The notes under the pieces were generated by a model. The model saw nothing but the letters and a program-made list of their open reading frames with translations, was not told the origin of the DNA and made no database searches. This document shows positions 26,940 to 47,099 of a DNA stretch of 47,099 nucleotides, one piece after another; position 1 is the first letter of the stretch; the number at the start of each line of letters is the position of its first letter. Source of the stretch: a virus (Duplodnaviria; Heunggongvirae; Uroviricota; Caudoviricetes). The stretch is from positions 1-47,099 of IMG/VR virus record IMGVR_UViG_2534681604_000006; one strand, given 5' to 3'. The position numbers were made by a program, and so were the translations under genes.

Positions 26940-28829
26940 TTAATCGTGTTTTGGCCATACTTTCAATGCAATTTCCCCCAACTTTTTACCCCGCTCCAGG
27001 ATTTCACCCTCATCCCATTTATCCTTAAGTATAAGTGGTATGTTCAGTCGTAGATTGGTGTGGACGATGAGAGCATCACGTTTTTTCAGAAATACAGCAT
27101 TCTGAACAGAACGGTTTACGCTAAGGTTAAGCAAAGTTAGATTTCCCAACGTAGCTATCGCTTGTTGCCGTTTCCTTACCAGTAGCTGCTCAGGGGTAAG
27201 ATCTGTTCCAGACAGAACAATTTGGTTCAATACCGTTGCATCTGAATTTGTCACCATATGACCATTTTCGAGAGGCCAACAGGAATACCAACTTTGAGGC
27301 ATAAGATGATCGATATCGAGATTGGAAAGATTTGGAACATCAGGCTTCTCTGTCTTCACTTGGTGACAAAGTTCTCTTTCAAGTTCCGTTAACATTGAGC
27401 GCATTTTCGGTGCGTCGAGCCTGCCAGGATAAAGTGGAGCATTGATGCAAGCATTGAGAAATTCTGAGTCACCAGGCCAACGTGAGGCTTCGCCATTTAA
27501 GCTATTGAGGATATTACGTAACTCAACACTGGAAATTTCCGTTTTAGACAAGTGCCGCAATACATTCATAAATACATTGTTGTAATTCTTTGGCGTCAGG
27601 CCACATACGGCTCTTCGTACTACGTAGGAGACAAGATCATTATACATGGCTGCTTTCTCATCATCGGCGATGTTAGCTATCGAAATGAACAAAGCAAGCG
27701 GATAAAGTGTCGTCACATCATAGGCTGCGATGCGATGTCCAAAGTGTGAGATGGGGGTTGTGCCAAAACCACCAACCAAATCTTTATATTGTGATGCATA
27801 TTGTTTGAGGCGCTTTACTTGCAGATCAGCTCGTTGTGAAGGCAAGTCCTTACTTACATAATCACGATACTCATTGTAAAGACGAGACAGATCAATTTCA
27901 CGTTGCCTTTCTGATTGCAATGTCGCATGCACTAGCCACTCCATGCGTGGTTTATTAATACGTCCACGGCGTTGCCTTTCCGACCAGTATGTATCTTCAA
28001 AGCTCTTCCACTCATTTTCATATAATTCAATAGCATTAATATTTTCATGCTCAGCGCACATAAAGATGTAGTTGCGAATAAGATCCGTGGCATGAAGTTC
28101 CGCCCCTCGGCCATTTAATGTTTCAAAAATTATTTGGGCATCATCTTCAGCTTCGAGAAATATGCTTACCAGTTTCAGATCCGTCAAGACAGCCTCAATT
28201 AGTGCTACAGCATTTTCATGTGGTGAGTACTTTTCTATTTTAATCCATTTTATAAAGGCTTCAGTAAAAAAACATAATGCCTCTAGTGACGGCGGGTGGT
28301 TGAAATGTTTACGTAACGTACCATGTTGCGTGAAGCTATCAGAAAATACATTACGGAGATCGTCAATGTTTTCAACATTAAAACTTTGAATAAAATGAGT
28401 TTGGTCTCGAAAAGTTGGCCACAGTTTGAAGCATTCTACCTTTTTATTTCGCATAGTTGCTTCGTTTGTATTTTTCAAGCAAGTCAATACTAACCCTTCC
28501 AAATCAGAAAGGCCTGTAGCACGCAATGATAATCGAATGGATGCCAGAATATATTGAAGAGTGGTTAAACGTTGCTGGCCGTCAATAATATGTATGGTAT
28601 CTACACCTAACAAGCTGTTTTTGAGTTGAGGTTCCAGCACCACCGCGCCAAGGAAATGGGGAGTTGGTTTTGTTCCCAAAAGTCGGCTATGTGCTTTTTC
28701 GAAGATATCCTCCAGCAAAGCTGACCATTGGTTTTGTTGCGTCCATACGTAGGCACGTTGATAGAATGGAACACGATATTGTCGTTGATTTTGGAAAAGT
28801 TGCTGGATGGTTAGCGTTTCGGATTTCAT
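26940..28829 (-). CDS. GmrSD-like type IV restriction endonuclease (DUF262 + DUF1524 domains)
   Basis: N-terminal DUF262 motifs (FYQRAYVW, IIDGQQRLTT) and C-terminal HNH-like DUF1524 (DIDHLMPQSW); AT-rich. Confidence 0.8.
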   Translation of the reverse strand: MKSETLTIQQLFQNQRQYRVPFYQRAYVWTQQNQWSALLEDIFEKAHSRLLGTKPTPHFLGAVVLEPQLKNSLLGVDTIHIIDGQQRLTTLQYILASIRLSLRATGLSDLEGLVLTCLKNTNEATMRNKKVECFKLWPTFRDQTHFIQSFNVENIDDLRNVFSDSFTQHGTLRKHFNHPPSLEALCFFTEAFIKWIKIEKYSPHENAVALIEAVLTDLKLVSIFLEAEDDAQIIFETLNGRGAELHATDLIRNYIFMCAEHENINAIELYENEWKSFEDTYWSERQRRGRINKPRMEWLVHATLQSERQREIDLSRLYNEYRDYVSKDLPSQRADLQVKRLKQYASQYKDLVGGFGTTPISHFGHRIAAYDVTTLYPLALFISIANIADDEKAAMYNDLVSYVVRRAVCGLTPKNYNNVFMNVLRHLSKTEISSVELRNILNSLNGEASRWPGDSEFLNACINAPLYPGRLDAPKMRSMLTELERELCHQVKTEKPDVPNLSNLDIDHLMPQSWYSCWPLENGHMVTNSDATVLNQIVLSGTDLTPEQLLVRKRQQAIATLGNLTLLNLSVNRSVQNAVFLKKRDALIVHTNLRLNIPLILKDKWDEGEILERGKKLGEIALKVWPKHD

Positions 28830-29548: not shown

Positions 29549-32500
29549 ATGGATGAAATTTCCAGATTTATTGGAAAGATTGAGGTGCTTCACAAGACAG
29601 GATGTGCAACTGAACATTCGTACAGACCTGCTTTTATTGACCTCATCGAAAGCTTTAATAATGACATAACGGTTTTAAACGAACCTAAGCGCATTGAATG
29701 TGGTGCCCCCGATTTCATTATCCAGCGTGGAAATATTGTCGTTGGTCATTTGGAGGCAAAGGATGTTGGCGTGGATATCCGAAATCTCACAGGGCCGAAC
29801 AAAAAGCAGCAGCAGCGTTATCTTGATGCCCTACCTAATCTCATCTACAGCAATGGCCTCGATTGGGATTTCTACCGTGATGGGCAACTACTGGAATCGG
29901 TTACTATTGGTTCCATGGGGCTAGGTATCAAGTCAGATGCAGGCCAGTTCGACAAGTTGAAATCATTACTGGATGATTTTATTAGCCAGACACCTATCAG
30001 CATTACTAGCCCTCAAGAGTTAGCCGTGCGCATGGCGGGTAAGGCCAAGCTTATCAAACCTGTGTTCTTTAACGCTTTGGATGCTGATCTGCGATCTGGA
30101 AATGATACTGAGCTAGTTTTACAGTACAAGACCTTCAGAGACAACCTTATACACGGTATTGACCCGGAAAGTTTCGCGGATATTTATGCAGAGACCATCT
30201 GCTACGGTATGTTCGCAGCTCGACTACATGACAATACGTTGGATACGTTCAGTCGTCATGAAGCGTTGGACAAGCTACCCAAAACCAACCCGTTCCTAAA
30301 AAATCTATTCAGTTATATAGCTGGAAGCGGGTTAGACGAACGTATTGTTTGGATCATCGACGATCTTGCCGATATTTTTCGGGCAACAGATGTTGCGGCC
30401 ATCATGGCCGGTTTCGGCAAGCTCACTGGCCGACAAGATCCTTTCCTACACTTCTATGAAACCTTCTTGGCCGCTTATGACCCAGACAAACGCAAATCTC
30501 GAGGTGTTTGGTACACTCCGGAACCAATAGTAAATTTCATTGTGCGAGCCGTAGATGAAGTCTTGCAAACCGAGTTTGGTCTTAAAGATGGGCTAGGCGA
30601 TACATCGAAGATAAAAATCCCATGGGACACTGGCCAGCGTAAATTGACCAAGTCTGGTAGACCTACGGCCGATGGAAAAAACTTTATCACCGAAAAAGAC
30701 GTTCACCGGGTTCAGATTCTCGATCCAGCTACCGGCACTGGCACTTTCCTGGCGGAGGTAATCAAGCAGATCGCCCAAAAGGTTAACGATGTAGCGCCTG
30801 GCATGTGGAGTGGCTATGTCGAAAAGGAGTTGATTCCACGCATCCACGGATTCGAAATTATGATGGCCTCCTATGCAATGTGCCACATGAAACTGGACAT
30901 GATACTCACCGAATTGGGTTACAGGCCAAGCAGCAATCCACCGCGCCAATCAATATACCTAACTAACTCACTGGAAGAAGGTGACCCACCTAACTATAGC
31001 TTGCCATTCGCTAGCTGGCTTGCCACCGAAGTGAAACTCGCCAATACCATCAAGCGTGATATGCCTATTATGTGCGTGATTGGCAATCCACCTTATTTGG
31101 GCGAAGGCGGCGTTTCAGAAGGGTGGATTGGTAGACTTATGGACGACTATAAAAAAGAACCCGGCGGTAAGGAGAGGCTTAGGGAACGCAATCCCAAATG
31201 GCTGAATGATCTATATGTGAAGTTCCTGCGTATCTCCTCGCACTGGGTTGAAAAGAACGGTGAGGGTGTCTTGGGATTCATTACCAACCACGGCTATCTG
31301 GATAATCCCACCTTCCGGGGCATGCGTTGGCACTTGCTTCATACTTTTGACAAGATTTGGATTCTGGATTTACATGGCAGTTCCAAAAAGAAGGAGAAAA
31401 CGCCGAACGGTTCCATGGATGTTAATGTCTTCGACATAATGCAGGGGGTGTCCATCATAATCGGCGTTAAGAAAAAGCATAGTGGTAATGGTCTGGCTGA
31501 AGTAATGCGAGGTGATTTGTGGGGCAGTAGGGCGGAAAAATACGAGGCTCTGAGAAATCTTAACTTGACAAACGAGCTTTTCAAAAAAATTGAAATAAGA
31601 CCGCCTCAATATCCCTTTGTTACACAGGACTGGACTGATTTTGAAAGTTATCAGTCCGGATTTCCTATTAATATTTTTATGCCGGTACATGGAAATGGGA
31701 TTGTCACAAAACGGGATAAATTGAATATTCACTTTACTCCTAATGATGTTAAGCAAGTCGTTGAAGATTTCCTGACGCTCAGTGAGTCTGAAGTCCGGAA
31801 TAAATATAAACTTCCAAATGATGTCAGAGACTGGCGATATGAATGGGCTAAACAGGACATCGAAAGCAGGGTGGGAAAAATTCCAGTTCAGAAAATTGGT
31901 TATAGGCTCTTCGATCGTCGTTTTATCTTTTATTCGGGGAAAGCAAGAGGACTTATTGGTTGGCCAGTGGCACATATCATGGAACATTACATTCGTGGAA
32001 AGAATATTGGGTTACTGACCACTAAAGCACATAGAGATGCTGATTTTGCTCATGTATTTATAACTGATCTACCAACGGAAGCCATTCATTTCTCAGCTAC
32101 TAGTGGCTCAAATGCGATGAACTTTCCCCTTTACCTCTATCCGAAAGACGATCTGACAAAGCCCCAAGTTAATTTCGAACCCAAGCTCTTCGCCCGCTTG
32201 CAAAGATTGGCTGCTCATTCTGATTACGGCATACCCAATGAAATCGTTGTCTTTGATTATATTTACGGTGTGCTTCATTGTCCGCTCTACCGCAAGGCTT
32301 ATGCGGAGTTTCTTAAAACTGACTTCCCGCGCATTCCTTGGCCAGCCAGCCCGGATGAGTTTTGGCATGTCTCAGTCAAGGGCGGCGAGTTGCGGCGCTT
32401 GCACCTAATGGAACCATCAGCCATAGGTGATACATCATTTAGCTTCATGGGCGATGGCAATAACGAGGTGGATACCATCGGCAAGGCATCTTTCCGAGAA

Positions 32501-32725
32501 GGCAAGGTTTTTATCAATAAAACCCAGTACTTCGTATACGTTCCGGAGAATGCTTGGAACTTTCGTATCGGTGGCTATCAGCCTGCTCAGAAATGGCTCA
32601 AGGATCGCCAAGGGTGTACTCTGTCATTTGAGGATATAAGGCACTACCAAAGAATTATTAAGGTGCTCATCGAAACTGATCGTATTATGGCAGATATTAC
32701 AATGAATCTGGGTATTAAAGTCTAA
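29549..32725 (+). CDS. Single-chain type IIL/IIG restriction-modification enzyme (MmeI-like)
   Basis: N-terminal PD-(D/E)xK motif (APDFII...GHLEAKD), AdoMet motifs GVWYTPEPIV and ILDPATGTGTF, catalytic NPPY (VIGNPPY), C-terminal target-recognition region. Confidence 0.75.
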   Translation: MDEISRFIGKIEVLHKTGCATEHSYRPAFIDLIESFNNDITVLNEPKRIECGAPDFIIQRGNIVVGHLEAKDVGVDIRNLTGPNKKQQQRYLDALPNLIYSNGLDWDFYRDGQLLESVTIGSMGLGIKSDAGQFDKLKSLLDDFISQTPISITSPQELAVRMAGKAKLIKPVFFNALDADLRSGNDTELVLQYKTFRDNLIHGIDPESFADIYAETICYGMFAARLHDNTLDTFSRHEALDKLPKTNPFLKNLFSYIAGSGLDERIVWIIDDLADIFRATDVAAIMAGFGKLTGRQDPFLHFYETFLAAYDPDKRKSRGVWYTPEPIVNFIVRAVDEVLQTEFGLKDGLGDTSKIKIPWDTGQRKLTKSGRPTADGKNFITEKDVHRVQILDPATGTGTFLAEVIKQIAQKVNDVAPGMWSGYVEKELIPRIHGFEIMMASYAMCHMKLDMILTELGYRPSSNPPRQSIYLTNSLEEGDPPNYSLPFASWLATEVKLANTIKRDMPIMCVIGNPPYLGEGGVSEGWIGRLMDDYKKEPGGKERLRERNPKWLNDLYVKFLRISSHWVEKNGEGVLGFITNHGYLDNPTFRGMRWHLLHTFDKIWILDLHGSSKKKEKTPNGSMDVNVFDIMQGVSIIIGVKKKHSGNGLAEVMRGDLWGSRAEKYEALRNLNLTNELFKKIEIRPPQYPFVTQDWTDFESYQSGFPINIFMPVHGNGIVTKRDKLNIHFTPNDVKQVVEDFLTLSESEVRNKYKLPNDVRDWRYEWAKQDIESRVGKIPVQKIGYRLFDRRFIFYSGKARGLIGWPVAHIMEHYIRGKNIGLLTTKAHRDADFAHVFITDLPTEAIHFSATSGSNAMNFPLYLYPKDDLTKPQVNFEPKLFARLQRLAAHSDYGIPNEIVVFDYIYGVLHCPLYRKAYAEFLKTDFPRIPWPASPDEFWHVSVKGGELRRLHLMEPSAIGDTSFSFMGDGNNEVDTIGKASFREGKVFINKTQYFVYVPENAWNFRIGGYQPAQKWLKDRQGCTLSFEDIRHYQRIIKVLIETDRIMADITMNLGIKV

Positions 32726-33074: not shown

Positions 33075-33120
33075 ATTCGTAATGCGAAGGTCGTAGGTTC
33101 GACTCCTATTATCGGCACCA
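33075..33120 (+). other. 46-nt copy of the tRNA-Thr(CGU) 3' end, anticodon loop to CCA (prophage attR; attachment site used by the downstream island)
   Basis: ATTCGTAATGCGAAGGTCGTAGGTTCGACTCCTATTATCGGCACCA folds as the 3' two-thirds of a tRNA; the 5' part is absent, so this is not a functional tRNA gene. Confidence 0.75.
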
Positions 33121-33727
33121 TCAAGAAAATCAATAACTTAGCTTAACTTCTCTAAGAAATTGTATCTTCTGTTATCACTTACAAACGCCTATACGTTGTT
33201 ATGGGCTTTGGTAGTGTAACACGTATGGGCGAGTAGTTCACAGGCTCAACCTCGTAACAAGTTCCTTTGAAGCTGGAAGACGTGCCACCGTCTCTAAACC
33301 TTCTACCAAAACTCTTAGCAAGATGTTCCACACCTGGCGCGGTGTCCAATGATGCTACACGTCGTGAGACGTTGCAGAGGATAAACAGGCTAAATGATGG
33401 GAAGAGTTTTAAGTGCAATAGTGGATCAAAGCCCACCTCTTCAAAACCTAACTTGATCGGGAAAGAATCAAGCTCTAGCACGGTTTCGTCCACCGGAGTA
33501 CAACGGGTGCCTGATAAGAGAAGAACTGCTAAGACTTCATAGCTTTTGTGAAAAAGCCCTTTTTAGTGGATACGCCTACGGCGCTTATTTTTTGGGATAG
33601 CCCATCAAAGGCGCTTTATGGCTCCTATTGTCTTGAAAATGTATCTTTACTTGTATTGTGTTTTATGCGTAGTCTCCCTGTGTAGTATGTAACTTGTTAA
33701 TTTTCATATGAATACAGAGGTAACACG

Positions 33728-33886
33728 ATGAAAAACATTGCAGCTATCAAACGTAATAACCGCAAGATTCACGCTCGTAAGTTCCTGTCTACGCCAGAAG
33801 GAAAAGCCTGGCTAGAGCGTAAACAGAGAGAGAACGAAGAAAGAAAACTCCTTAGTGAGTTGAAATGGCTTAGAGAGGATTTCTGA
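33728..33886 (+). CDS. Small basic hypothetical protein (52 aa)
   Basis: ATG at 33728 preceded by GAGG; below the 60-aa cutoff of the ORF track. Confidence 0.3.
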   Translation: MKNIAAIKRNNRKIHARKFLSTPEGKAWLERKQRENEERKLLSELKWLREDF

Positions 33887-34177
33887 AAATCTCCAGAACG
33901 CAACAGGACGCATTCTAACGCTGTTTTCATTGCTTGGTATAGGGATGTATAGGTGATGTGTGTTTAATGCGTCTGTGAGCTTGTTTTGTGCCTTATTTTG
34001 CATTTTCATAATGCAGGAGAGAACACGGAAAACCTTAAAATTAATTATTGGGGTATTTAAGGCTATTTTCAGGTTATTTAAGGGTATTAAACTTGATTTA
34101 ATTGATTAAAATATAAACAGATAATTATGTATCTTATTGATTTATAAGGTTATTTTTAAATAAAGGTAAATAAAAAA

Positions 34178-34227
34178 TAAATAGCCATAAATAGCTATAA
34201 ATACGTCTAAATACATCTAAATACCTA
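34178..34227. repeat. Five tandem 10-bp iteron-like repeats
   Basis: AAATAGCCAT AAATAGCTAT AAATACGTCT AAATACATCT AAATACCTAT, one helical turn apart. Confidence 0.7.
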
Positions 34228-34703
34228 TATCCCTTCCTTATGGCTAGATTGCGAGAGGTGCTTAACGCGATTTTCAGCGCCCCCCGATCTGGAAAATCCA
34301 GAATCCCCAAATATCAGCAAGGAATTTTCTTGCGTAATCAACATCGTTTTTACCTATTAAATCATTACACAGAAAGCCTTTCTGTAATGTCTCTCACTAA
34401 ACTTTCACTAAACACGAGAATGATCGGTTTTATGTCGGATCAGATGCTAGAAACAGCACCACGTCTCACAAGGGCTGTAAGCGATGAAACCAGTGTTTAT
34501 GCGGGTACAGGTCAAAATATAGGCCAAAATCCATTTAACATAATAATCGTAATATGCACTAAGGAACACATAGAACGCCTTGAATTGATGTATCAGGGGA
34601 AAAGTGATGGATTTTTTACGTAGGAGCACGAAAGGGCTTCTATTGACTTTTGTATGTTATGAAATATAATTAAAGGTTTTTTTGTTTTTATCGTGTGATG
34701 TAG

Positions 34704-35150
34704 TGGATTACACAGGGGAATAGATTAAATGGTGTTCTGTTTATACAGGTTTATTTGTTAGATCAACAATTTGGCATTTCTAAACAGATGTTTGAACGTT
34801 GCCAAATGCCTTGACAACACAAGAAAAGGGCTTGCTATGCCACGCATTACACGAAATAAGGCTGTAAAAACAAAATAAATTTTAAAATTTGCACAAACGA
34901 GAGAACTCATTAAGAAACAAGCAGAACAATTTTTAGCCAACAATTTCTGATGGTGCTCTGTAAGCCGCATTACACAAGGCTTTGCGAAAGTGATGTAAAA
35001 GTGAAGAAAGTAAGAATTGCACTTTTAAGCTACTTTTCATTGAATTTTTTAGTATGGAATTACACAGGGAATAGAGAGCATTATTCTATGATTTACACAG
35101 GGAATATAGGGGGATTATGGCACACACATAGAAAGGCATTACACAGAGTG
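34704..35150. repeat. Dispersed ATTACACAGGG(AATA) direct repeats, at least six copies
   Basis: GGATTACACAGGGGAATAG, CATTACACGAAATAAGG, CATTACACAAGG, GGAATTACACAGGGAATAGAG, GATTTACACAGGGAATATAGG, GCATTACACAGAG. Confidence 0.5.
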
Positions 35151-35191
35151 CTATGTGACAAATGGATGTAACGAGAGGTTACATTCAGCTA

Positions 35192-35326
35192 CCCCCACAG
35201 AATTCTGTTAATCTTAACTTTTAAAGAGATTTTTACCCTAACAAAATTCTGTTACCCCACCCTAACAGAATTCTGTTAGACACCCCCACAGAAAACTGTT
35301 AGACACCCCCACAGAATTCTGTTACC
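35192..35326. repeat. Array of five direct repeats each containing the palindrome ACAGAATTCTGT
   Basis: Palindrome copies at 35197, 35241, 35265, 35288 and 35311, the last four at about 23-bp spacing, each flanked by CCC(C/T)...TTA(G)ACA. Confidence 0.7.
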
Positions 35327-36542
35327 TATTAGATCATTTATTAAATTACTTATTAAATTATAATATTATATATTTATTTATATGATCTTTTGCCTTCCGG
35401 CGTTAGCTTCACTCTCTGGCAAGCAGCCTTACTCCGCTACCTTTGGGCTTCGTGGCTGGCCCGTTCCGCTCACACCGAAAGCAAAGCGTTACTTTCTTCG
35501 TGTAACTTCGTTGGCGGTAACGCCCACGAAGAAATACTATTGCGCTGTGCGCAGTAAGAGTAATCACCTAACCAATCATACTGATTGCTTACGTGTTAAC
35601 TCTCTCTAACTCTTAATTACCCTCCTACATTTAATAACTCTGTTATTCTCTGTAGTTGTGTAATTACTCGAAGAGAGAGCGGCTAAAGCTCAATTACACT
35701 CTGCTTTCCTCGTGTAATTTCACTAAGCCTCAATACAATTTCACTTCCTACATTCTGTAGTCGTGTAATTGTTTTCGGTGGAAAAGCCAGAGGCGACACC
35801 GAAAGAGAATTCTGATCTTATTAATCTTATCTATCTTAGTTAATCTTCTTACTTATCTTACTTACTTTATCTACTTTATTATTAATAATAGCTTTATAAG
35901 CTCTGTGTAGCTCTCTGACGCAAGAAACAGCATTCAGGAAGGGAATCACCTTAGAAAAGTGTTCTTTGCGTCATAATGTGTTTTATGAAGGATTCAGAGG
36001 TGTTTCATAACAGGAGTGTATAGAGGATACTTTAGGTAATTAAAAATAAGGGGTCTAAATGCTTCTCTAACAGCATTAAGCAGGGTAGGGAATGGAAACG
36101 CATTGCCTACACATATAAGCTCACTACAGAGCTTTACAGAGCGTTTTATAAAGTGACTCTCTATCTTATATCTACCATCACCTTTTCATATACCTAACAA
36201 ATACAAAATAAGCCCCTTAAATAAGCCTCTGGCGAGCTAAACAACCTCTACATAAGAGAATGTATTGCTTTTATCAAAACTTCGTTAGAACGCGTTTTAG
36301 AGCGTTTTAGACAATAATGAAGAATAGCACTACACAGAAGAGCACGAATAGCTAAGAAAAAATGTAAGTGCATGAAAAAGATCAGTTTTTTTATGGAAAG
36401 GTATTGACAAATGTTTCTTTATATGTAATAATAGGTATTAGAGGGACAGAAAAACATTCTTCTCTAAATAATCAAAATCAATGCACTTTGAAGCCGTCAG
36501 GCTTGCAAGGTGTTTTTCTTTTAACTGAATAAGGAGTTTTTT

Positions 36543-36731
36543 ATGAAATGGTTTACCCCGGAGCACGTCATCTCGGCATTTAAAAAAGGTGAGCTTACAC
36601 GCCATCAAGTAGTAATGAATCGTAATATGGCAAGGAGTCGAGGTTATCCAGAGCGAGCAGCTTGCTTCAATGAAGCACTCAAGATTATTGATGAACTAAG
36701 AAAAAATGAAAAAGAATCTGAAACAGAGTAA
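36543..36731 (+). CDS. Hypothetical small protein, first gene of the island operon
   Basis: 62 aa; strong RBS AAGGAG 8 nt upstream. Confidence 0.55.
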   Translation: MKWFTPEHVISAFKKGELTRHQVVMNRNMARSRGYPERAACFNEALKIIDELRKNEKESETE

Positions 36732-36750
36732 AGAATAGAAGGAGAAAACT

Positions 36751-36918
36751 ATGAGCGAAACTAAGAAACCAATTCCGCGCACTTACCTACACGTTGACCC
36801 TGAAATCTTCAAGGTTTTATTTGCTGAAGCCAAGAAAAGGCAAATTATGGTCAGTGATTTGATGTTAGAAATCATTACTGAAGCAGCAGAGAACATCAAA
36901 CAAAAAAAGGGTAAGTGA
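36751..36918 (+). CDS. Ribbon-helix-helix-like small DNA-binding protein (55 aa)
   Basis: ATG at 36751 with RBS GAAGGAG; N-terminal beta-strand-like RTYLHVDPEIFKV followed by helices; not in the ORF track because it is under 60 aa. Confidence 0.5.
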   Translation: MSETKKPIPRTYLHVDPEIFKVLFAEAKKRQIMVSDLMLEIITEAAENIKQKKGK

Positions 36919-36969
36919 TCCTCATTCACTTTAGTAGCGCATTAAGCGTGATTTATAAGGAGATTTTTA

Positions 36970-37623
36970 ATGATTAATGAAGAACAATTTGTAAAAGTTC
37001 CTATGTGGATTCTAAAAATAAGCCAAGTAAACGGGCATAAATTTACAGATAGTGCTAAAAACCTTTACTGCTATCTGAAAGGGTTTGATCGTGCATTTCC
37101 CTCTTACGCTAAGATAGGCGATGTTTTTGGCATAACACCAAGAGCAGCAGAGGAAAGGGTTAAGAAATTGCTCGAAATGGGATTAATTATAAAAGATGCA
37201 CGACCAGGAAGTTCTAATGTCTATCAAGTGGTAGATATTCCACAAGAAGAAGCTAGACAAGAAGCCAAGACACAACAAGAAGCTACTGTTAAAGCTGTTC
37301 CTGATCAGCTTCCCCCTACGGAAGATAATAAACAGCCTTCTTTTGATGTTCTTGATGATTGGGATGCGCCTTTGCCGTGGGAGACGGAAGAAACACCTGT
37401 TTCATCAAATGAAAAGGTAGCTAATGATAATGAGGAGGATGTGTTAGAGAATTTTGCCTCTCTTATCATCCGGGAGAAACACAGAAGAACAGGAGGATCA
37501 TCATTTATAGACTTTGCAAATTCACTAGCTTATAGACACGGGCTAAAACGACCAAATGGTATTGAGGCATATTTTGCTAAGAAACATCCCAAAGTATATG
37601 AAGACTTTGATATTCCATTTTAA
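36970..37623 (+). CDS. HTH-domain protein, putative replication initiator/organiser
   Basis: 217 aa; N-terminal winged-HTH-like region (KNLYCYLKGFDRAFPSYAKIGDVFGITPRAAEERVKKLLEMGLI), acidic linker, basic C-terminus; RBS AAGGAG. Confidence 0.55.
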   Translation: MINEEQFVKVPMWILKISQVNGHKFTDSAKNLYCYLKGFDRAFPSYAKIGDVFGITPRAAEERVKKLLEMGLIIKDARPGSSNVYQVVDIPQEEARQEAKTQQEATVKAVPDQLPPTEDNKQPSFDVLDDWDAPLPWETEETPVSSNEKVANDNEEDVLENFASLIIREKHRRTGGSSFIDFANSLAYRHGLKRPNGIEAYFAKKHPKVYEDFDIPF

Positions 37624-37634
37624 TAAGGAGGGTT

Positions 37635-37913
37635 ATGATTCAATATTTAGTAAAAAATCAAGTAGACAGAATTCAGTGTAATGACACAGGAAAACGCATC
37701 TATGAAACACTTGCTTACCTCTATAAAGGAAAGCCAACACCGCTAAAATATAGCGATGTGTTACATCGAGCAGGGTGCTCTGAAGATGGTTTAAAATTCT
37801 GGCTTAGACAGCTATCAAATTTCGGTGTTATAGAGATTAAAGAATTATCTTTCTCTACATTCAATCTCAAAAGACTGGATAAAGAAATAGACTTCATCTA
37901 TTCCACTCTCTAA
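37635..37913 (+). CDS. Hypothetical protein
   Basis: 92 aa; RBS AAGGAGGG. Confidence 0.55.
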   Translation: MIQYLVKNQVDRIQCNDTGKRIYETLAYLYKGKPTPLKYSDVLHRAGCSEDGLKFWLRQLSNFGVIEIKELSFSTFNLKRLDKEIDFIYSTL

Positions 37914-38045
37914 AATCTCTCTATGTAATTAAAATATAAAAGGAAAACATTATTATGGTAATAGCTATGTGGTGGTTGTTGTTTTTTATGCTCGTAGAAA
38001 CATACTTCGGGGTGTTTTCCTTTAAAAGAAAAGGAAAAGTAAATA

Positions 38046-38456
38046 ATGGCAAAAAGAAAAAACAACGTTGTTAAGAAGATCGGTGATTCAGCTTCTCTTC
38101 TAAGTAAACCTAAATCTATTCTAAGACGCAAAGACTTTAAAGAGCTAGTTACGCTCACCAAGCAAAATAGCGCCCCTGGCGAATGGAAAACAGAGATTAT
38201 AGAACATTCTCCCTCTGTGCCTTGCGGAGATGAATTTAACGCCTTACAAGAAATCTTATCTTCAACACCTGGCGTATTCTGGAAACCTAGAAAAAGAAAA
38301 GAGTATATCGTTGATAGCTCTGATTTGCGCAAATACCAGATTTTAGGATTTGAAGATTATAATCACTACGTCGGTTATCTCGCCACCAATGGCCTAAATA
38401 ATTTAGTTCCTGAATTCCAAATTTTAGATAATGCTGATCACTATGGAGACTTTTAA
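38046..38456 (+). CDS. Hypothetical protein with basic N-terminus
   Basis: 136 aa; RBS present. Confidence 0.55.
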   Translation: MAKRKNNVVKKIGDSASLLSKPKSILRRKDFKELVTLTKQNSAPGEWKTEIIEHSPSVPCGDEFNALQEILSSTPGVFWKPRKRKEYIVDSSDLRKYQILGFEDYNHYVGYLATNGLNNLVPEFQILDNADHYGDF

Positions 38457-38457
38457 T

Positions 38458-38796
38458 ATGAACAAAAACACGTATGACACAATTTATTCACTAATTAATT
38501 ATTATGAGGATGATTACCTCCTGCCTTTAAACCGCGCTGAACTTGAAGCATACAAAGAAAACACGCCAGCGGCACTAAATGAGGCGTTTAAACACTGGGA
38601 TTTAGCTGTGAATGCCTTTGAGCACCTCTCTAAGCGTGTAGAGATGCTCTGTAAGCGTGAGAACGCATATCTAACAGCGGATCAGCTATTTGAGCTATCA
38701 AACTGGATAGAAGATATTGAATCGGACGTTCGCTATGTGGGAGATGGCCTTATTGAACTAGCTCAACGCTTAGGCGCTGCTATCACAGAAGAATAA
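38458..38796 (+). CDS. Hypothetical protein
   Basis: ATG at 38458 with GGAGA RBS, directly after the upstream stop; ORF track lists 38431 as an upstream alternative. Confidence 0.5.
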   Translation: MNKNTYDTIYSLINYYEDDYLLPLNRAELEAYKENTPAALNEAFKHWDLAVNAFEHLSKRVEMLCKRENAYLTADQLFELSNWIEDIESDVRYVGDGLIELAQRLGAAITEE

Positions 38797-39128
38797 AAAA
38801 AGCAACAAAAAAGTTGTAAAATATCTTGACATTTCATCTATTGTATGTTAATATAATTATATAGGGTGATTATTTTTCCTTTATTGGTTCGATATTAAAA
38901 ATTCTTCTTGTCGTTAAAGGGGAGTAAAATCTCCGCTCCCCGCTTCTCCTCCTTAAGTAAATACTGTGTCATTATTACCTCTTTTTTCCTTTGTTATGCA
39001 TACATCTTGGAGTGTGCATAACATAGGGTAATTACAAAGGCGGCTTTAAATGCTGCCTTTTATTTTGCCCGTTATGCAACTTAAAAGTTGTATTTCTTAC
39101 TTTAAACAAGGTAACAAGGTTTATATAA

Positions 39129-39341
39129 ATGTTGTTTTTAAACGATAAAGAGCAAATCATCAAGTATAAAGATGAAATGCTGAAAATTAATCCACAAATT
39201 ACCGAAATGGTAGCTAAATACGCTGGGTGTTCTGTCGAGGAAGTAGAACGATGTGTTGAAAAATATTTTTCTCCTTCTTCTCCGTCTACACCTTCCATTA
39301 ATGAATTAATCAAATTAAAAGCTAAGGAGATTACTAAATGA
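39129..39341 (+). CDS. Hypothetical small protein
   Basis: 70 aa; stop overlaps the next start. Confidence 0.45.
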   Translation: MLFLNDKEQIIKYKDEMLKINPQITEMVAKYAGCSVEEVERCVEKYFSPSSPSTPSINELIKLKAKEITK

Positions 39342-39700
39342 TTATTGATTTAGACACTCTGTTTCCAGTCCGAAAGACTTTCACAGATATTGTAAGTTAT
39401 TGTACTGATCCGTTTGCCTCTGTAGAAAGCAAGGTTTTTGCTTCTCTTCCTGCTGATGTTGAATGCGGCGACTTGATCACCAGCACTGGCGCTAAATATG
39501 TATCAGGAGATGATATCTATGTTGTTATGAGTGAATTTGTAACGGCTGGAGAAAACAAGCCTGTAGATGTTTTACGTAGCAATGCTGGCCTTGTATGCAT
39601 TAAAGCTGATGCGCTGAATGCTGTAAGTGAAGCAGCAAAAACAGCCTTAATTAAAAAAGGCTTCCAGCTTGAAGGCTTCCACTCTGTTTTCACTTCTTAA
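39338..39700 (+). CDS. Hypothetical protein
   Basis: 120 aa; RBS AAGGAG. Confidence 0.55.
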   Translation: MIIDLDTLFPVRKTFTDIVSYCTDPFASVESKVFASLPADVECGDLITSTGAKYVSGDDIYVVMSEFVTAGENKPVDVLRSNAGLVCIKADALNAVSEAAKTALIKKGFQLEGFHSVFTS

Positions 39701-39718
39701 TAAAAGGAATAATAATAA

Positions 39719-40747
39719 ATGATTCTAGGTAATGATTACGTTGATTTAGCTCCTCTGTTCTCTGCGCATAGCACTAGAAACTATCTGCTTTCTACTCTCG
39801 ACTTCACTGATCCGGTGGGCGTTAGTTCTCATAAAGTAGCTGTTTCCCAGCTTGTCGAAAGCAACGAATCTCTCTTTAACAAAGAGACAAGCCGTTTTAG
39901 TTCTGAACACAACGTTACTAAGCGAGAACAAGGTAAAGAATGGCTGATCGAAATCCCGTATTTTCTTCGTGAAGATGTGATCCGTCCTTCTGATGTTCAA
40001 GGCAAACGTAAGCCTGGCACTGATTTCCAGGAAACACTCACTGATATCTATGCGGAATATATCGCTAAACACAATGTTGCATTCCAGCGTACAAAAGAGA
40101 GCGTATTGGCTGCTTCTTTGTTCTCTGGCAAAACTTACACGCCTAAAACTGATGATGTTCTTATCGAATGGGGCAAGCTGTTTAACGTATCAGCTATGAA
40201 AGCCACGGTTAACGCTTCCAGCACTGACACCACGAAGATTTTTAAAGAATTTGATCAGATTGCTACTAACATTTTTGAAATCACACAAAGCCAGGCGTCG
40301 GCGGTAGAACGCATTGTTGTTTTCTGTAAACCTGACGCCTTCTCTGCAATTCGATTCTCTGCTGGTATGGCAAACGCATTCCAGTATGTAAGCCCACTGG
40401 AAGAGGGGAATGTTGTGTACCAGCGTCGTGACCTGCTACCAGGAGTGACAGCGTTCACTATTCCAGGAACTAACATTGATGTTGTTAAACTGGTAGATCC
40501 GCTACATCTGGCACATATGACCGCAGACGCTGTAGCGATTCCGAAGTTTGCTAAAGGCTCTAACGTCTACCAGGCCATCTATGGGGCGGCTTCCAGCACC
40601 TTTGAACTGATTAATGCCGCTCCTGCTGAGGTGTATAGCTACAGCTATGAATCTTCTCGTGGTGATGCTGTTAACGTTGTTACAGAGAATAGCCAGATGG
40701 TTGTAAACCACGGTGTAGGCTTCTCCGTTCAAATCACTGTTAAATAA
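39719..40747 (+). CDS. Hypothetical 342-aa protein, possibly structural; followed by a strong terminator
   Basis: Largest well-formed ORF in the middle of the operon; RBS AAAGGA; no motif recognised with confidence. Confidence 0.6.
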   Translation: MILGNDYVDLAPLFSAHSTRNYLLSTLDFTDPVGVSSHKVAVSQLVESNESLFNKETSRFSSEHNVTKREQGKEWLIEIPYFLREDVIRPSDVQGKRKPGTDFQETLTDIYAEYIAKHNVAFQRTKESVLAASLFSGKTYTPKTDDVLIEWGKLFNVSAMKATVNASSTDTTKIFKEFDQIATNIFEITQSQASAVERIVVFCKPDAFSAIRFSAGMANAFQYVSPLEEGNVVYQRRDLLPGVTAFTIPGTNIDVVKLVDPLHLAHMTADAVAIPKFAKGSNVYQAIYGAASSTFELINAAPAEVYSYSYESSRGDAVNVVTENSQMVVNHGVGFSVQITVK

Positions 40748-40766
40748 TATTTTAACGTGTAATAGA

Positions 40767-40798
40767 GGCGTGGCGTGTATTCACGCTTCGCCTTTTTT
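40767..40798 (+). terminator. Intrinsic terminator after the 342-aa gene
   Basis: Nested GC stems GGCG..GCGTG tatt CACGC..CGCC followed by TTTTTT. Confidence 0.65.
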
Positions 40799-40833
40799 AT
40801 TTATTTTTTTAAATTTTGAGAGGTGATTAAAAT

Positions 40834-41037
40834 ATGGAAGTGATTTTGAAATCAAAAAATGGTGTACACGTACATTTAGATGCTAATGATTCTAGAGGCT
40901 TGTTAAATCTGAAATATCTATGTTCTCTTTTAGATGTTCCCTATGAAGGCGTAAAAGCCCGTATGTTCAGATTAAACGAGAGTATTGATCAAGCTCTGCA
41001 CCATTTCTTAAGTAAAGAAGGTGATAAAAATGATTAA
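40834..41037 (+). CDS. Hypothetical small protein
   Basis: 67 aa; RBS GAGGTGA. Confidence 0.5.
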   Translation: MEVILKSKNGVHVHLDANDSRGLLNLKYLCSLLDVPYEGVKARMFRLNESIDQALHHFLSKEGDKND

Positions 41038-41051
41038 TAAGGGGATTTTAA

Positions 41052-42884
41052 ATGTTAGAAATTAACACTTCTAAAATTAAGAACACAGTAACATTTAGTG
41101 TAGATAAAGACAGCTTGAAAAAAGCGAAAGATTCTATTACAGGCTTAAAGAAACTCGCAGAAAATATCAAGCCCGCTAAATTAAGATTTGATAATGTCAC
41201 TAAAGGCTATAAGAAAGCACAAAACGAAGTAGACAAGATTACCCAGCAAAAAGCCAAAACAGAAAAGCAAAATCAAAGAGCACAAGCTGCCGCAGCAAGA
41301 GCACAGGCAAGGCAACAGCAACAAATAGCAGCACGTAAAGAGAAAGCAGAATTAAAGCTCCTCGATGTGTCAAGCTCTATCAGTGCAATGCACCGCCTCT
41401 CTGTAGCTGAACAATACAAAGCTATTGCACAGGCTAGAGAGATAGCAAAACAATATGAGCAAGGGGCTATCTCGCTTGCACGTATGAATAGCCAGATGAA
41501 ACGCCTACAACAGCAACAACGTAAGATCAATGGCAACAGGAAAGCCCAATTAGCCCCCGTTAAGGGAGGATCAGGGAATGCCGCCACTATGGGCGCTCTG
41601 TTATTTGGAGGCGCTACGGCTGCTGCTGGCGTGATGGCTGTTAGTAAAGCCTCTGAATTTATGGCTAACAGCTTTGCGAATGCTGAAGCCCAAGGGGAGC
41701 TAATTCAACGGGCCAAGCTGGGCGGTGTAGACGTTAACCAGATGTATAATATTACAGAATGGGCGTATAAAAACGGCGTTGACTCTATGATGGGTGATCA
41801 AGGGGCTAGGAAATACCTGGATCAGATGAAAGATGTTAGGGAACGTGCCGCAAAATCCTACAGTGAAGCTGAATTGGTGAAAGATAAGCAAACCGGAAAA
41901 TCTAAATGGAAAGGCGGTGATAACGCTATTAATGAACTTCTAAACATCGGTGTTATTAACAAAAGCGACCTTAAAAAATTTGCTGATAATCCAGCCGGAT
42001 TAATTTCTAAGGCTGTTAATGGAATGATGAAAAAAGGGTTTTCAGACTCCCAAATTGGACAACGTTTAGAAGACCTGGGCGATGATTTGATGCTTACGTC
42101 AAAATATTGGCAACGTTCCGTTAAAGATGTACAAGAAAGTATTAATCAGCAAAAAGCCTCTGGAAAATGGCTAACAGAAACACAGCAAGACTCTATTGTT
42201 AAATTCAGAGAGCTAAACAGACAGCTTTCACAGCTTTCTGATGCAAGACAAGTAGCATTCGTAGACGGCTTTATGAAATCTCTCGATCCAAAAGTAACGG
42301 AAGAGTTTATGAAAAACCTTTCTAATCTCACTCCGTATTTTACGAAGCTGGGCGAAGCGTCTGGAAGTCTCTTTGAGGCCATTATGAAGATTGTAAACTG
42401 GTTTAATCGTAATGATGATAAGACAGATGCTATTCAGAAAAATATGGGAGATGCACCGCCATTAAGCAATGAAGGAATGAAACAGAATCTTTCTAATCTC
42501 GTTCCTGATAAATATAAAGGCGCTGGCACTGCAACAACTACACCTGATAATACTCATTCCCTCTTTAACACAATTAAGGGATGGCTTTTCGATGATAATG
42601 CTTCTTCTGTGTCAGATGTAAAAATGTCAGTTAGTGAAGCACCGATAACCAATCTCAAACAGGGTGCTTTAAATAATCTTGCAATGACAACTCCGGCTTA
42701 TAATTTATCTCCTGTGTTTAACCTGAATCCAACGTTTGAAGTGGTAACAGAAGTTCCTCTTACTATTAATTCTGACACATCAAGATTAAGCGATTATGTG
42801 GATTTTACAGCGAGAGCAAGTCGGGATAGCTTCTTGAAATCATTAACATTAACCAGCTTATCAGGACAATCCAACGGCGGGTAA
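41052..42884 (+). CDS. Large coiled-coil protein with Gly/Ala-rich hydrophobic segment (tape-measure-like or other extended structural protein)
   Basis: 610 aa; Q/A/K-rich heptad-like region (QRAQAAAARAQARQQQQIAARKEKAELK) and GGSGNAATMGALLFGGATAAAGVMAV segment; RBS AAGGGG. Confidence 0.55.
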   Translation: MLEINTSKIKNTVTFSVDKDSLKKAKDSITGLKKLAENIKPAKLRFDNVTKGYKKAQNEVDKITQQKAKTEKQNQRAQAAAARAQARQQQQIAARKEKAELKLLDVSSSISAMHRLSVAEQYKAIAQAREIAKQYEQGAISLARMNSQMKRLQQQQRKINGNRKAQLAPVKGGSGNAATMGALLFGGATAAAGVMAVSKASEFMANSFANAEAQGELIQRAKLGGVDVNQMYNITEWAYKNGVDSMMGDQGARKYLDQMKDVRERAAKSYSEAELVKDKQTGKSKWKGGDNAINELLNIGVINKSDLKKFADNPAGLISKAVNGMMKKGFSDSQIGQRLEDLGDDLMLTSKYWQRSVKDVQESINQQKASGKWLTETQQDSIVKFRELNRQLSQLSDARQVAFVDGFMKSLDPKVTEEFMKNLSNLTPYFTKLGEASGSLFEAIMKIVNWFNRNDDKTDAIQKNMGDAPPLSNEGMKQNLSNLVPDKYKGAGTATTTPDNTHSLFNTIKGWLFDDNASSVSDVKMSVSEAPITNLKQGALNNLAMTTPAYNLSPVFNLNPTFEVVTEVPLTINSDTSRLSDYVDFTARASRDSFLKSLTLTSLSGQSNGG

Positions 42885-42917
42885 TTCCCGCCATAACATT
42901 ACAAGGAAATTATTATT

Positions 42918-43631
42918 ATGGCGACCGCCGGGATTTTAACCATACGTGCAGCAAATACTCCAGAACAACACGTTCAGGCTGTTTACAAAGCAGAACAAGA
43001 TATAAACTCTACAAAAAACGAAAATAGCAAAGCTAATACAACAAAAGGAGAAAATGGATTTGCTATTGTTACCAGTGGGCTGGCATCTTCTGGTAATGAC
43101 GTTTATGAAAATTATATGGCGCTGGCTTTTGACAGTGTAGATGATGTAAACGTGAGACGTTCGGCAGATGTTACAAGCTACCCCGTAGAAAATGGTGCTA
43201 CTGTGTCTGATCACGTTCAAATTAAAAACAATAAATTTTCTCTTAAAGGGCGTATCTCTGAAACACCGATTAAAAGCGATCCTGGCTTGTTAAAGAGTGC
43301 AGGGGTGAACGGGAACAGAAGATCATTAGCTATCGACTACCTGAATCAGATTATGGACAGTAGACAGCCTTTTCTTCTTGTTACAGAAAATAAAACTTTT
43401 GAGAACGTTGTTTTAACAGGCATCGAATACACAGAAGAAGCAAGCGAATCCCTGGTATTTGATCTTAGCTTTGAGCAGATCAGGCTCGTTTCGTATGGCA
43501 CAGTAAACACTGTAGCTATCAAAACACAGCCATCTAAGAACATCGGGGCGAATATGAAAAAACGTGTTAACACTGAAAAATCAAGTAGTGAAGGTGAAGA
43601 TACTATTACGCCTGCCTTTAAGCAGGAATAG
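42918..43631 (+). CDS. Hypothetical protein
   Basis: 237 aa; RBS AAGGA; last gene of the operon. Confidence 0.55.
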   Translation: MATAGILTIRAANTPEQHVQAVYKAEQDINSTKNENSKANTTKGENGFAIVTSGLASSGNDVYENYMALAFDSVDDVNVRRSADVTSYPVENGATVSDHVQIKNNKFSLKGRISETPIKSDPGLLKSAGVNGNRRSLAIDYLNQIMDSRQPFLLVTENKTFENVVLTGIEYTEEASESLVFDLSFEQIRLVSYGTVNTVAIKTQPSKNIGANMKKRVNTEKSSSEGEDTITPAFKQE

Positions 43632-43673
43632 CCGTAAACGCCTCTAAAACGCTCTGTAACGATGTAATTGTAA

Positions 43674-43704
43674 AAGAGGCTACCAATCTATGCTGAAGCC
43701 TCTT
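43674..43704. terminator. Hairpin between the convergent operon and the integrase gene
   Basis: AAGAGGCT (43674-43681) / AGCCTCTT (43697-43704) 8-bp stem with a 15-nt loop. Confidence 0.45.
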
Positions 43705-43712
43705 TATTGCGT

Positions 43713-44990
43713 CTATGGCGTTGTTTTACGCCTTAAATTTGATTTTTTATTGATTGATAAGCCTTTCTCTATTTCAGGGTAGCGTAGAAGCTCAATATAG
43801 TTTTTAAGCTCTACTGGAGAAGCTGCATTCTTGCTATATGTGCGGAATGTCTCTGTATTGCCGCGTGTATGGCCCAGGAGAAGGGCGATCCTGTCTTCTG
43901 GAATTTGATTTCGATCAAGAAGCTGTGCTACTCCGTGTCTCAGAGAATGAAACACCTTCCTTTCTGTTCCCTTTTCCCCTAAAGCCTTTCGTTTAGCTCT
44001 TGTAAATCTCTGCGTGTGCCACGTGGAACGTTTACCATCAGCACGCTCTGTAATGCTGGCGTGATAGAACAAAAAGCCATTATGAGGCTTTTCACGAAGA
44101 GATAACACCAATGGAGTGATAAGGCTATGCACAGGCACAAGACGTGCCGCAGCTTTCGTTTTTCCCTGTGTGATTTCAAAACACAGCACACCTTCGATCT
44201 CTTTCACATCGTCTATTGTGAGACTTGCTATCTCATTGATCCGCATCCCTGTATATAAACCGATAAGACACAAAGCCATCATTTCTTTGTTTTCTGCTGA
44301 ATTACCGGAAAATACTTGCAACACCTGCAATAGCTCTTTGTTAGAAAATGCCTCGTAGCTCTCTCTACTTTGTGCCACATCAAGCCTATGCCCTCGCCAG
44401 GGGGAGAGCGCCCTTTCTGGCGCATCGTGGTAACGTGATGAAGCTAACTCCCATAGCTGGGCCATTGGGCTGATATAATTTGCAATTGATTGTTGTGAAA
44501 GGGTTTTTTGCATGTGTTCTATCCAGCCTGTAACAGTGGTGCGGCTTACATCTTGCAATGCAATATCAGGCTTTTTACGGTAGGAGAGAAACATCTCTAC
44601 CGCTTTTCTTGCCTTAGCTAAAGTGGCTGGCTTCTTCTTCGTGCTGTTAATTGTCAGGTAGATTTCAAGAATTTTAAGCAATGACGGACACGAAGACGCT
44701 GTATCTTGCATTCTGGTAGCTGTTTTGGCGTATTTAGCCTTACTGCGTAACAGTTCCAGCGTGTTCTCTATTGTGCTGTTTACAGGGGCGACACTCTCCC
44801 GTAGACAATGGTATTCATCTGCAATCTGATCACGCTTTCTACGTGCAACACGAAGATTACTTGTATGCAGACTCCTAACAAACGTCCTTTTTCCTTCAAA
44901 AAAGGGCTGCATATACACAGGCAACGTGATCCTCAAATAGTAGTTACCGTAAGAATCACAGATTATGTATTGATTGGGCTTGTATCTCAT
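43713..44990 (-). CDS. int: Tyrosine site-specific integrase
   Basis: C-terminal catalytic motifs (RLVPV..., FHSLRHGVAQLL, LLGHTRGNTETFRTYS); start taken at ATG 44990 with GGGGAG RBS (upstream ATG at 45047 lacks one); adjacent to the att core. Confidence 0.85.
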   Translation of the reverse strand: MRYKPNQYIICDSYGNYYLRITLPVYMQPFFEGKRTFVRSLHTSNLRVARRKRDQIADEYHCLRESVAPVNSTIENTLELLRSKAKYAKTATRMQDTASSCPSLLKILEIYLTINSTKKKPATLAKARKAVEMFLSYRKKPDIALQDVSRTTVTGWIEHMQKTLSQQSIANYISPMAQLWELASSRYHDAPERALSPWRGHRLDVAQSRESYEAFSNKELLQVLQVFSGNSAENKEMMALCLIGLYTGMRINEIASLTIDDVKEIEGVLCFEITQGKTKAAARLVPVHSLITPLVLSLREKPHNGFLFYHASITERADGKRSTWHTQRFTRAKRKALGEKGTERKVFHSLRHGVAQLLDRNQIPEDRIALLLGHTRGNTETFRTYSKNAASPVELKNYIELLRYPEIEKGLSINKKSNLRRKTTP

Positions 44991-45133
44991 AAACTCCCCG
45001 GCTAAAGTGTCGGAGCGTTTGTAATGTGAAAATTGATTGTAACGCATAGAAAATGATGATTTTTTCTATAAGATTCAATCAATTAGTAATGGTCGTAGGT
45101 GATGGCATTAACACGAGATTAATCGAGTGTTTT

Positions 45134-45152
45134 ACTCCTATTATCGGCACCA
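45134..45152. repeat. Right att core direct repeat (19 nt of the tRNA-Thr 3' end) preceded by a degenerate tRNA-like arm
   Basis: ACTCCTATTATCGGCACCA identical to 33102-33120; 45081-45133 resembles the tRNA 3' half with substitutions and an insertion; sequence just right of both cores is also similar (AAATCAATAA). Confidence 0.7.
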
Positions 45153-45237
45153 TTTAAATCAATAAGTTACCCATCATTAGTACCTTCCTTATTTTTTGAC
45201 TGGGACAAATTTGGGACCGATGGGTTCAGGATCGAGT

Positions 45238-46166: not shown

Positions 46167-47099
<933 letters not shown>

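Follow-up and report, generated by a model that had tools for sequence, protein, structure and literature searches.

A copy-number-variable 10-bp repeat beside a copy of the phi92-like phage genome end in a thrW island of Escherichia coli

The thrW island and its surroundings

The window, i.e., the whole stretch of 47,099 bp analyzed here, carries an island of ca. 12 kb (33075–45154) whose left end is a copy of the 3' 46 nt of tRNA-Thr (thrW) (33075–33120, + strand). This attachment-site repeat is the point at which homology with the thrW islands begins. Over its whole length the island was 96.7% identical to a block located directly after thrW (next to proA) in E. coli 2022E04-002, the homology with this strain starting within the last 46 nt of the tRNA-Thr, and related islands were found at thrW or tRNA-Gly. 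Of 5426 complete E. coli genomes, 754 contained DNA matching the segment 33500–35500 and 428 contained DNA matching 33950–34450, i.e., ca. 8–14%.

The island codes for a lambda O-like/winged-helix replication initiator of 217 aa with a modular N-terminal domain (36970–37623, + strand; HTH_36 below cut-off, phrog_270 with E 1e-10, phrog_391 and others), hereafter Rep, which is the HTH protein of the original prediction. Farther downstream, and on the same strand, are genes coding for a major capsid protein of 342 aa (39719–40747; Phage_cap_E, 53.5 bits), a tape-measure-like protein of 610 aa (41052–42884; phrog_16051, E 2e-53) and a Dit-like tail/baseplate protein (42918–43631). A tyrosine integrase (43713–45047) is located on the opposite strand. 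When these proteins were compared by tblastn with the complete Justusliebigvirus genome MG065639, the Dit-like protein was 60% identical to the product of the gene adjoining the phage tape measure, and the N-terminal 66 aa of the island tape measure were 51% identical to the phage tape measure itself. The capsid protein matched the Justusliebigvirus capsid gene over its full length with 23% identity (E 4e-6), as expected of a distant homologue.

On its left the island is bordered by a separate tailed prophage (1–33075), inserted in tandem at the same thrW site, that contains terminase, portal, tail and baseplate-sized ORFs together with its own tRNA-Asn and tRNA-Thr (2015–2170). The right end of this prophage holds defence-type genes, namely a GmrSD type IV restriction enzyme (26940–28829, − strand) and a 1058-aa Type ISP-like methyltransferase/specificity protein (29549–32725). 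On the other side, the homology with the thrW islands stops at 45154, and the DNA from there to 47099, which includes a LysR-family regulator gene running off the window (46206–47099), is presumably chromosomal or part of another island.

The repeat studied here sits in a 2.6-kb AT-rich non-coding control region of the island. In most of the homologous RefSeq records there is no gene between ca. 33886 and 36543; one or two short hypothetical ORFs are annotated in the islands L008 and L009, and a recombinase gene in L010–L012. We found no known RNA families or tRNAs in 33400–37000. The recombinase, a serine enzyme of 179 aa (resolvase/invertase) coded on the opposite strand (L010 3367–3906, and also in L011 and L012), takes the place of a 385-bp segment (34316 to 34701) located after the conserved box CCCAAATATCA described below. 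Its position falls inside the putative terminal-repeat-like module, and phi92 also codes for a resolvase/invertase (gp053). Other short motifs are scattered over the control region. Boxes resembling (C/T)ATTACACAGGGAATAG form a cluster at 34364–35664, where ATTACACAG occurs with at most one mismatch at 34364, 34707, 34969, 35059, 35092 and 35138 (+ strand) and at 35656 (− strand). The motif has 25 matches in the window vs. 10 expected, and the cluster may be a binding array for a regulator or for a second protein. Farther to the right, the segment 35815–35882 consists of AT-rich short repeats, rich in TAAGATA/TAGATA and with periods of 9, 13 and 26, and its motif content resembles that of the repeat-laden non-coding region flanking the phage terminal repeat (L003 3860–4190). 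A weak match to phi92 (84% over 32 nt) was also detected at 36028–36059.

The 10-bp array and its curvature

The array consists of five head-to-tail 10-mers, AAATAGCCAT AAATAGCTAT AAATACGTCT AAATACATCT AAATACCTAT, in exact register at 34179–34228 (+ strand). The five units had been read correctly in the original prediction and all of them conform to its pattern AAATA(G/C)N(T/C)NT; only the position, given as 34178–34227, has to be shifted by one base. TRF reported the array as two overlapping rows of period 10 (34177–34203 and 34198–34224), each with 94% matches and a score of 47. Five consecutive AAATA-N5 units occur a single time in the 47-kb window, apart from one shifted copy with two mismatches, and were found in none of 100 dinucleotide-preserving shuffles of it.

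Comparison of ca. 45 homologous loci gave copy numbers from two to six units with a mode of four. The length differences are always whole 10-bp units, and they were seen among loci with flanks 93–98% identical, which makes the array a variable-number tandem repeat. The AAATA core is unchanged in every unit of nearly all the copies. Its presence in homologous islands at variable copy number shows that the array is a true product of tandem duplication rather than a coincidental pattern. Among these loci the array was absent from one island type, L012/L024, in which the sequence is unrelated from directly left of TTAACGCG. With the original prediction it had been proposed that absence of the repeats from homologous islands would refute it, and such absence was confined to this minority type, the array being present in the others. 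Since L012/L024 retains the neighboring phage-end block, the array is not essential.

The surroundings are extremely AT-rich, as originally described, with 22% GC over a non-coding stretch (34020–34240) that holds both this array and a second set of repeats and has no RefSeq CDS in the homologous records. GC falls to ca. 20% at 34020–34178, directly adjoining the array; as the mark of an origin such a block does not discriminate alone, since another is available at 35323–35385 (see below). The second set comprises two GGTATTTAAGG-like repeats (34044–34064 and 34065–34085, + strand) that are 76% identical and contain G(G/T)TATTTAAGG. Both are real, with an actual spacing of 21 bp instead of the 22 bp first given. 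Part of their sequence is complementary to the 10-bp array (GTATTTAAGGCTATTT / AAATAGCTATAAATAC), and they are nearly invariant across the homologues, L012 excepted.

Short direct repeats in AT-rich DNA are what both integrase arm-type sites and partition (centromere-like) sites look like. We consider either identity for the array highly improbable: it lies 1.1 kb from the attachment-site repeat (33075–33120), when arm sites are expected within ca. 200 bp, and 9.5 kb from the integrase gene, and no ParA/ParB-type genes were found in the island.

The regular spacing of the AAATA units had suggested that sites are placed on one face of the helix, and this was borne out both by the periodicity of AA dinucleotides and by the predicted shape of the DNA. 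At 10–11 bp, the AA periodicity of 34020–34119 and 34150–34249 was in the top ca. 1% of 100-bp windows and was reached by 12 and 30 of 500 shuffles, respectively; the array is not the maximum of the window for this parameter and other places score higher. We then calculated helix-axis trajectories under three dinucleotide wedge models, with wedge parameters entered by hand, so that the relative ranks are more reliable than the absolute angles. A bend of 60–70 degrees over 42 bp was predicted, centered at 34205, that reached percentiles of 99.85–100 in the three models. Among the distinct peaks of the 47 kb it ranked first, second and fifth, depending on the model, i.e., the in silico curvature analysis proposed with the original prediction places the array among the strongest predicted bends of the window. 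A second predicted peak near 34060–34068 coincides with the 21-bp repeats. In the structural sense, then, the stretch is DNA of the type bound by H-NS or IHF, AT-rich and curved with sites on one face, and a search by eye for the IHF consensus (WATCAANNNNTTR) gave no full match in 34020–34240.

The phage genome end and the palindromic repeats

We searched the segment 33500–35500 against 50,697 phage records and obtained matches only to phi92-like phages (54 records), all of them covering just 34243–34288 or extending up to 34316. The identity over 34243–34288 was 96–100%. In phi92 itself, 44 of these 46 positions are identical to 318–357, a segment that crosses position 343, where the left direct terminal repeat, annotated as 343 bp long, has its inner edge. 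Local BLAST showed that 34263–34288 equals the last 26 nt of the phi92 record, i.e., its right physical end (26/26), and that 34243–34262 matches the unique phi92 DNA that comes after the left terminal repeat. These two matches place the equivalent of the phage terminus between 34262 and 34263, as GCGAGAGGTGCT^TAACGCG (^ marks the boundary). The island therefore carries at 34243–34316 (+ strand) a copy of the phi92-type genome end, GCGAGAGGTGCT^TAACGCGATTTTCAGCGCCCCCCGAT, that is a putative packaging/cleavage site.

The length of the repeat does not depend on the phi92 annotation alone. For phage BME3 a terminal repeat of 342 bp was determined by PhageTerm, independently of phi92 (PMC12210895), and a Klebsiella phage of another genus of the Stephanstirmvirinae has an exact terminal repeat of 343 bp. 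The genome-end block is conserved in this Klebsiella phage, including the box CCCAAATATCA (34306–34316, + strand), which is kept in phages and islands. The block TAACGCGA...CCCAAATATCA was found in all of the ca. 45 island loci, including the divergent L008, L009 and L012 types.

The similarity may extend to the rest of the terminal repeat. An inverted repeat, TTGGCA-N23-TGCCAA (34771–34805), forms a second collinear HSP with the phage (E 5e-4) and recurs inside the phage terminal repeat, its order with respect to the boundary being the same. A tentative counterpart of the outer boundary, TTAAGAAA ... TTTTTAGC^CAACAAT (34910–34946, + strand), was recognized by eye and has no statistical support; its candidate cut at ca. 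34937 falls 132 bp after the inverted repeat vs. 137 bp in the phages. In the phages (L003 3013–3021 and 3355–3370, and L017/L123) the inner boundary reads GAGAGGTGCT^TAACGCG and the outer one GA(A/G)A(G)GT(A/G)GGCT^CAACA(A/C)ATAG. GGTGCT^YAAC is common to both phage terminal-repeat boundaries, which suggests a shared terminase cleavage consensus in Stephanstirmvirinae.

Further scans were made in larger collections. The terminus motif, compared with 185,579 species genomes, gave no more distant satellite lineage, only chance matches and two mis-binned E. coli-type contigs. Scans of IMG/VR and of virome and metagenome data recovered islands of this type and phages, and among them no contig with terminal overlaps or with ends proving packaging. 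One metagenomic contig, L119 (OLUB01000024.1, 65,769 bp), begins 6 nt before the equivalent of the phage terminus (34257 in the window) and continues through the island into chromosome-like DNA. Its start may be an assembly break caused by a coverage step or by the tandem repeat, or a coincidence, and as a sign of packaging it is suggestive only.

The copy of the terminus, together with the homology of the Dit-like, tape-measure and capsid proteins, makes a satellite-helper relationship with virulent phi92-like phages the most economical explanation. From its sequence, the island 33075–45154 looks like a satellite of virulent phi92-like (Justusliebigvirus/Stephanstirmvirinae) myoviruses that has not been described before. 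Our literature search, with a coverage that lacked most subscription journals, retrieved no description of a satellite of phi92, rV5 or Stephanstirmvirinae phages, and the incomplete coverage makes the novelty probable and not certain.

The original prediction had offered, besides a region bound by H-NS or IHF, the idea that the 10-mers are iterons which, with the adjoining AT-rich stretch as unwinding element, form a replication origin of the island served by its HTH/Rep protein. The helical phasing of the direct repeats, the very AT-rich DNA beside them and the presence of a gene for an O-like initiator in the same island fit this idea. However, the array is 2.7 kb from rep, and ca. 1 kb downstream of it there is a better set of candidates. 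Five palindromic boxes ACAGAATTCTGT, 12-bp palindromes in units of ca. 23 bp, start at 35197, 35241, 35265, 35288 and 35311 (35197–35322) and are directly followed by a very AT-rich block of ca. 60 bp (35323–35385), a candidate DNA-unwinding element. Other islands have, in place of this segment or in addition to it, palindromic families built on GGTCACTGTGACC, AGGAAAnTTTCCT, TATCAA-N-TGATA or GTAACG-N-GTTAC, each with its own AT-rich block. At least five such families, cassette-like and combined differently among islands, were recognized in 35150–35385 and its equivalents in L005–L012 and L102–L121.

Rep is modular as well, with four unrelated N-terminal DNA-binding domains combined with two C-terminal types, and the palindromic family located beside the final AT-rich block tracks the N-terminal domain in 21 of 22 loci: N1 goes with family A in seven of eight, N2 with D in eight of eight, N3 with E in four of four and N4 with B in two of two. 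The sole exception, L102, looks recombinant. The 10-bp array, in contrast, has the same sequence with the Rep types N1 to N4, copy number alone varying. Besides, its units of 10 bp have no dyad and are unlike initiator-sized sites, which usually span 17–22 bp and often have a dyad for O-like proteins. The L012/L024 type is again informative, as it keeps Rep and the palindromic repeats and lacks the array. We thus abandon the idea of an iteron array at 34179–34228, which now appears very unlikely. The independence of the array from Rep type and the covariation of the palindromes with it place the origin best at 35197–35385, which on sequence grounds is a better candidate than the array. Seen in this way, the origin of the island is a modular system, with Rep DNA-binding domains and iteron cassettes that would be exchanged together.

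Directly after the AT-rich block, all island variants share a conserved GC-rich element of ca. 180 bp (35383–35570). Its predicted folding was weakly better than that of shuffled sequences (z −1.7 and −1.9 for the two strands) and it had no Rfam match. It could be a priming or single-strand initiation signal, or a small RNA.

Possible roles of the array and related systems

The position of the array relative to the copied terminus is fixed. It ends 34 bp before the boundary between 34262 and 34263, with the center of the bend 58 bp away, and wherever present among the ca. 45 loci it adjoins the terminus block. When five sequences were aligned, TAATATCAATA, which is conserved in the phages, came to stand against the last unit (TAAATACCTATA), both being equally far from the boundary; a related box, AAATATCA, is found at a similar distance on the other side of the boundary. 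The likeness of the unit to the phage AATATCA box could be a chance match, both being short and AT-rich. A comparable tandem array is missing from phi92. Bends, on the other hand, recur: at 20–120 bp from the boundary, and on the side of the array, we predicted bends of 70–87 degrees in the Klebsiella phage and of 40–62 degrees in the array-less L012 type, arising in both from unrelated sequence, and phi92 itself has only a moderate predicted bend at the matching side.

Taken together, the alignment of the boxes, the recurrence of bends on the same side, the copy changes by whole turns and the precedents of packaging mimicry by other satellites favor an architectural, accessory role. The array would be a copy-number-variable tandem repeat, generated by slippage, that makes a strongly curved AT-rich segment and acts as a bent-DNA accessory of a satellite packaging site mimicking the helper terminus. 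We put this forward tentatively, as an explanation whose chances fall a little short of even. After infection by the helper, the satellite would excise and replicate from its own Rep/iteron origin, ca. 1 kb from the array. The helper terminase would then recognize the mimicked terminus block (34243–34316) and make its cut between 34262 and 34263. Bending of the flanking DNA by the phased AAATA units would help the terminase, or a host nucleoid protein, to assemble on one face of the helix, and the units may also supply extra boxes of the AATAYC type. Changes in copy number by whole 10-bp steps would leave the upstream elements on the same helix face.

The variation in copy number is, at the same time, equally expected of a neutral microsatellite-like repeat, and this counts against the packaging role, as do the absence of the array from L012/L024 and from phi92 and the only moderate bend predicted for the latter. 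As the main alternative, the array could be curved DNA that is neutral or only generically functional, i.e., a slippage-prone microsatellite within horizontally acquired DNA, coated by H-NS (perhaps also Fis or IHF), that helps to silence the island in the lysogen and has no specific part in packaging or replication. H-NS prefers AT-rich, curved DNA, and the 22% GC and strong predicted curvature of the stretch are what this protein would favor. The drift between two and six copies among islands 93–98% identical, the dispensability of the array in L012/L024 and the AT-richness of the whole 2.6-kb region, which has no annotated gene, also agree with such an origin. What it leaves unexplained is that the AAATA core is invariant in nearly all copies while changes by whole units preserve the helical phase, that the array is always beside the most conserved element of the region, and that unrelated sequences are likewise predicted to bend on the side of the boundary where the array lies. 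We regard a purely neutral or silencing role as possible but rather unlikely; coating by H-NS and a function in packaging are compatible and may coexist.

Transcriptional control must be weighed too. Promoters are known to be activated by upstream curved A-tracts, the units carry TATAAA/TAAATA hexamers, and the phage DNA on the same side of the boundary is the upstream region of its first genes. The array could thus be an UP-element-like or curved activator, or an operator for a regulator of helper or satellite, serving a promoter that reads into 34240 onward or leftward. However, no sigma-70-like promoter was predicted at the array or just downstream of it, the nearest good ones being at 34643–34670 and 36404–36432. 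A T4-type late promoter (TATAAATA) within the array units was also considered and discarded: the motif has 14 copies in the helper genome, none of them in the 120 bp before an ORF start, i.e., it is not enriched upstream of helper genes. The ORF at 34240–34623 was rejected as a gene because it has no Pfam/PHROG match and, by reading, no evident ribosome-binding site before its start. It is annotated by RefSeq in a single homologous island (L008, as a 97-aa hypothetical protein over part of it), overlaps the homology to phage non-coding DNA, and has the recombinase gene in its place in other islands. A role in transcription therefore seems improbable.

In its widest form, the hypothesis would be that the array and the terminus copy jointly constitute the packaging site of a previously undescribed and widespread family of E. 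coli satellites, parasites of virulent phi92-like myoviruses with exact direct terminal repeats. The variable repeat would serve as a bend that can be tuned, or as an amplification of a terminase box, with which to out-compete the helper at the packaging motor, and the whole terminal-repeat-like module from 34263 to ca. 34937, with both cut sites, would be involved. We think that this complete scenario is somewhat unlikely as it stands, and it would have wide implications. The repeat would then mark the packaging site of an E. coli counterpart to the Vibrio PLE that parasitizes strictly lytic, therapy-relevant phages of the phi92/rV5 type. Its presence in ca. 8–14% of complete E. coli genomes could help to explain why such phages fail in one strain and not in another. 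To our knowledge, the recognition of genome ends by terminases of direct-terminal-repeat phages is poorly understood outside T7/T3, and the island would offer a compact model for how such ends are recognized and cut. The main value of the array is as a pointer to the mimic of the helper terminus in what appears to be an undescribed satellite of virulent E. coli phages.

Several features of the island have parallels in known systems. Like the lambda origin with its O protein, and like the origins of SaPI/PICI located next to rep, it combines an O-like Rep, repeated sites and AT-rich blocks, with the difference that the iteron-like elements are the 23-bp palindromic repeats (35197–35322) and not the 10-bp array. 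At terminase recognition sites, lambda cosB has an IHF bend and SPP1 pacL has phased boxes. The array resembles both in having helically phased short boxes and a (here predicted) bend within ca. 100 bp of a (here putative) terminase cut site; unlike them, its units are just 10 bp long, and neither the helper nor one of the satellite types has it.

Mimicry of helper packaging signals has been described for the satellites P4, SaPIbov5, EfCIV583 and PLE, the pac site of the latter adjoining its origin and sharing 14 identical bp within 89 bp with the helper (10.1101/2024.04.22.590561). As in all these cases, a short non-coding stretch of the putative satellite, here 26–46 bp, is nearly identical to the helper terminus, conserved among variants and located near the origin. 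The differences are that the putative helper is a virulent myovirus rather than a cos or headful phage, with genome ends in the form of short exact direct terminal repeats, and that the sequence putatively mimicked crosses the boundary of such a repeat. A further parallel is the PLE of Vibrio cholerae, a satellite of the virulent myovirus ICP1, with which the island shares a location in the chromosome, an integrase, an initiator and origin of its own, partial mimicry of a packaging site and, putatively, a lytic myovirus as helper. Unlike PLE, the island codes for its own capsid, tape-measure and Dit-like homologues, and the host and helper lineages of the two systems are unrelated.
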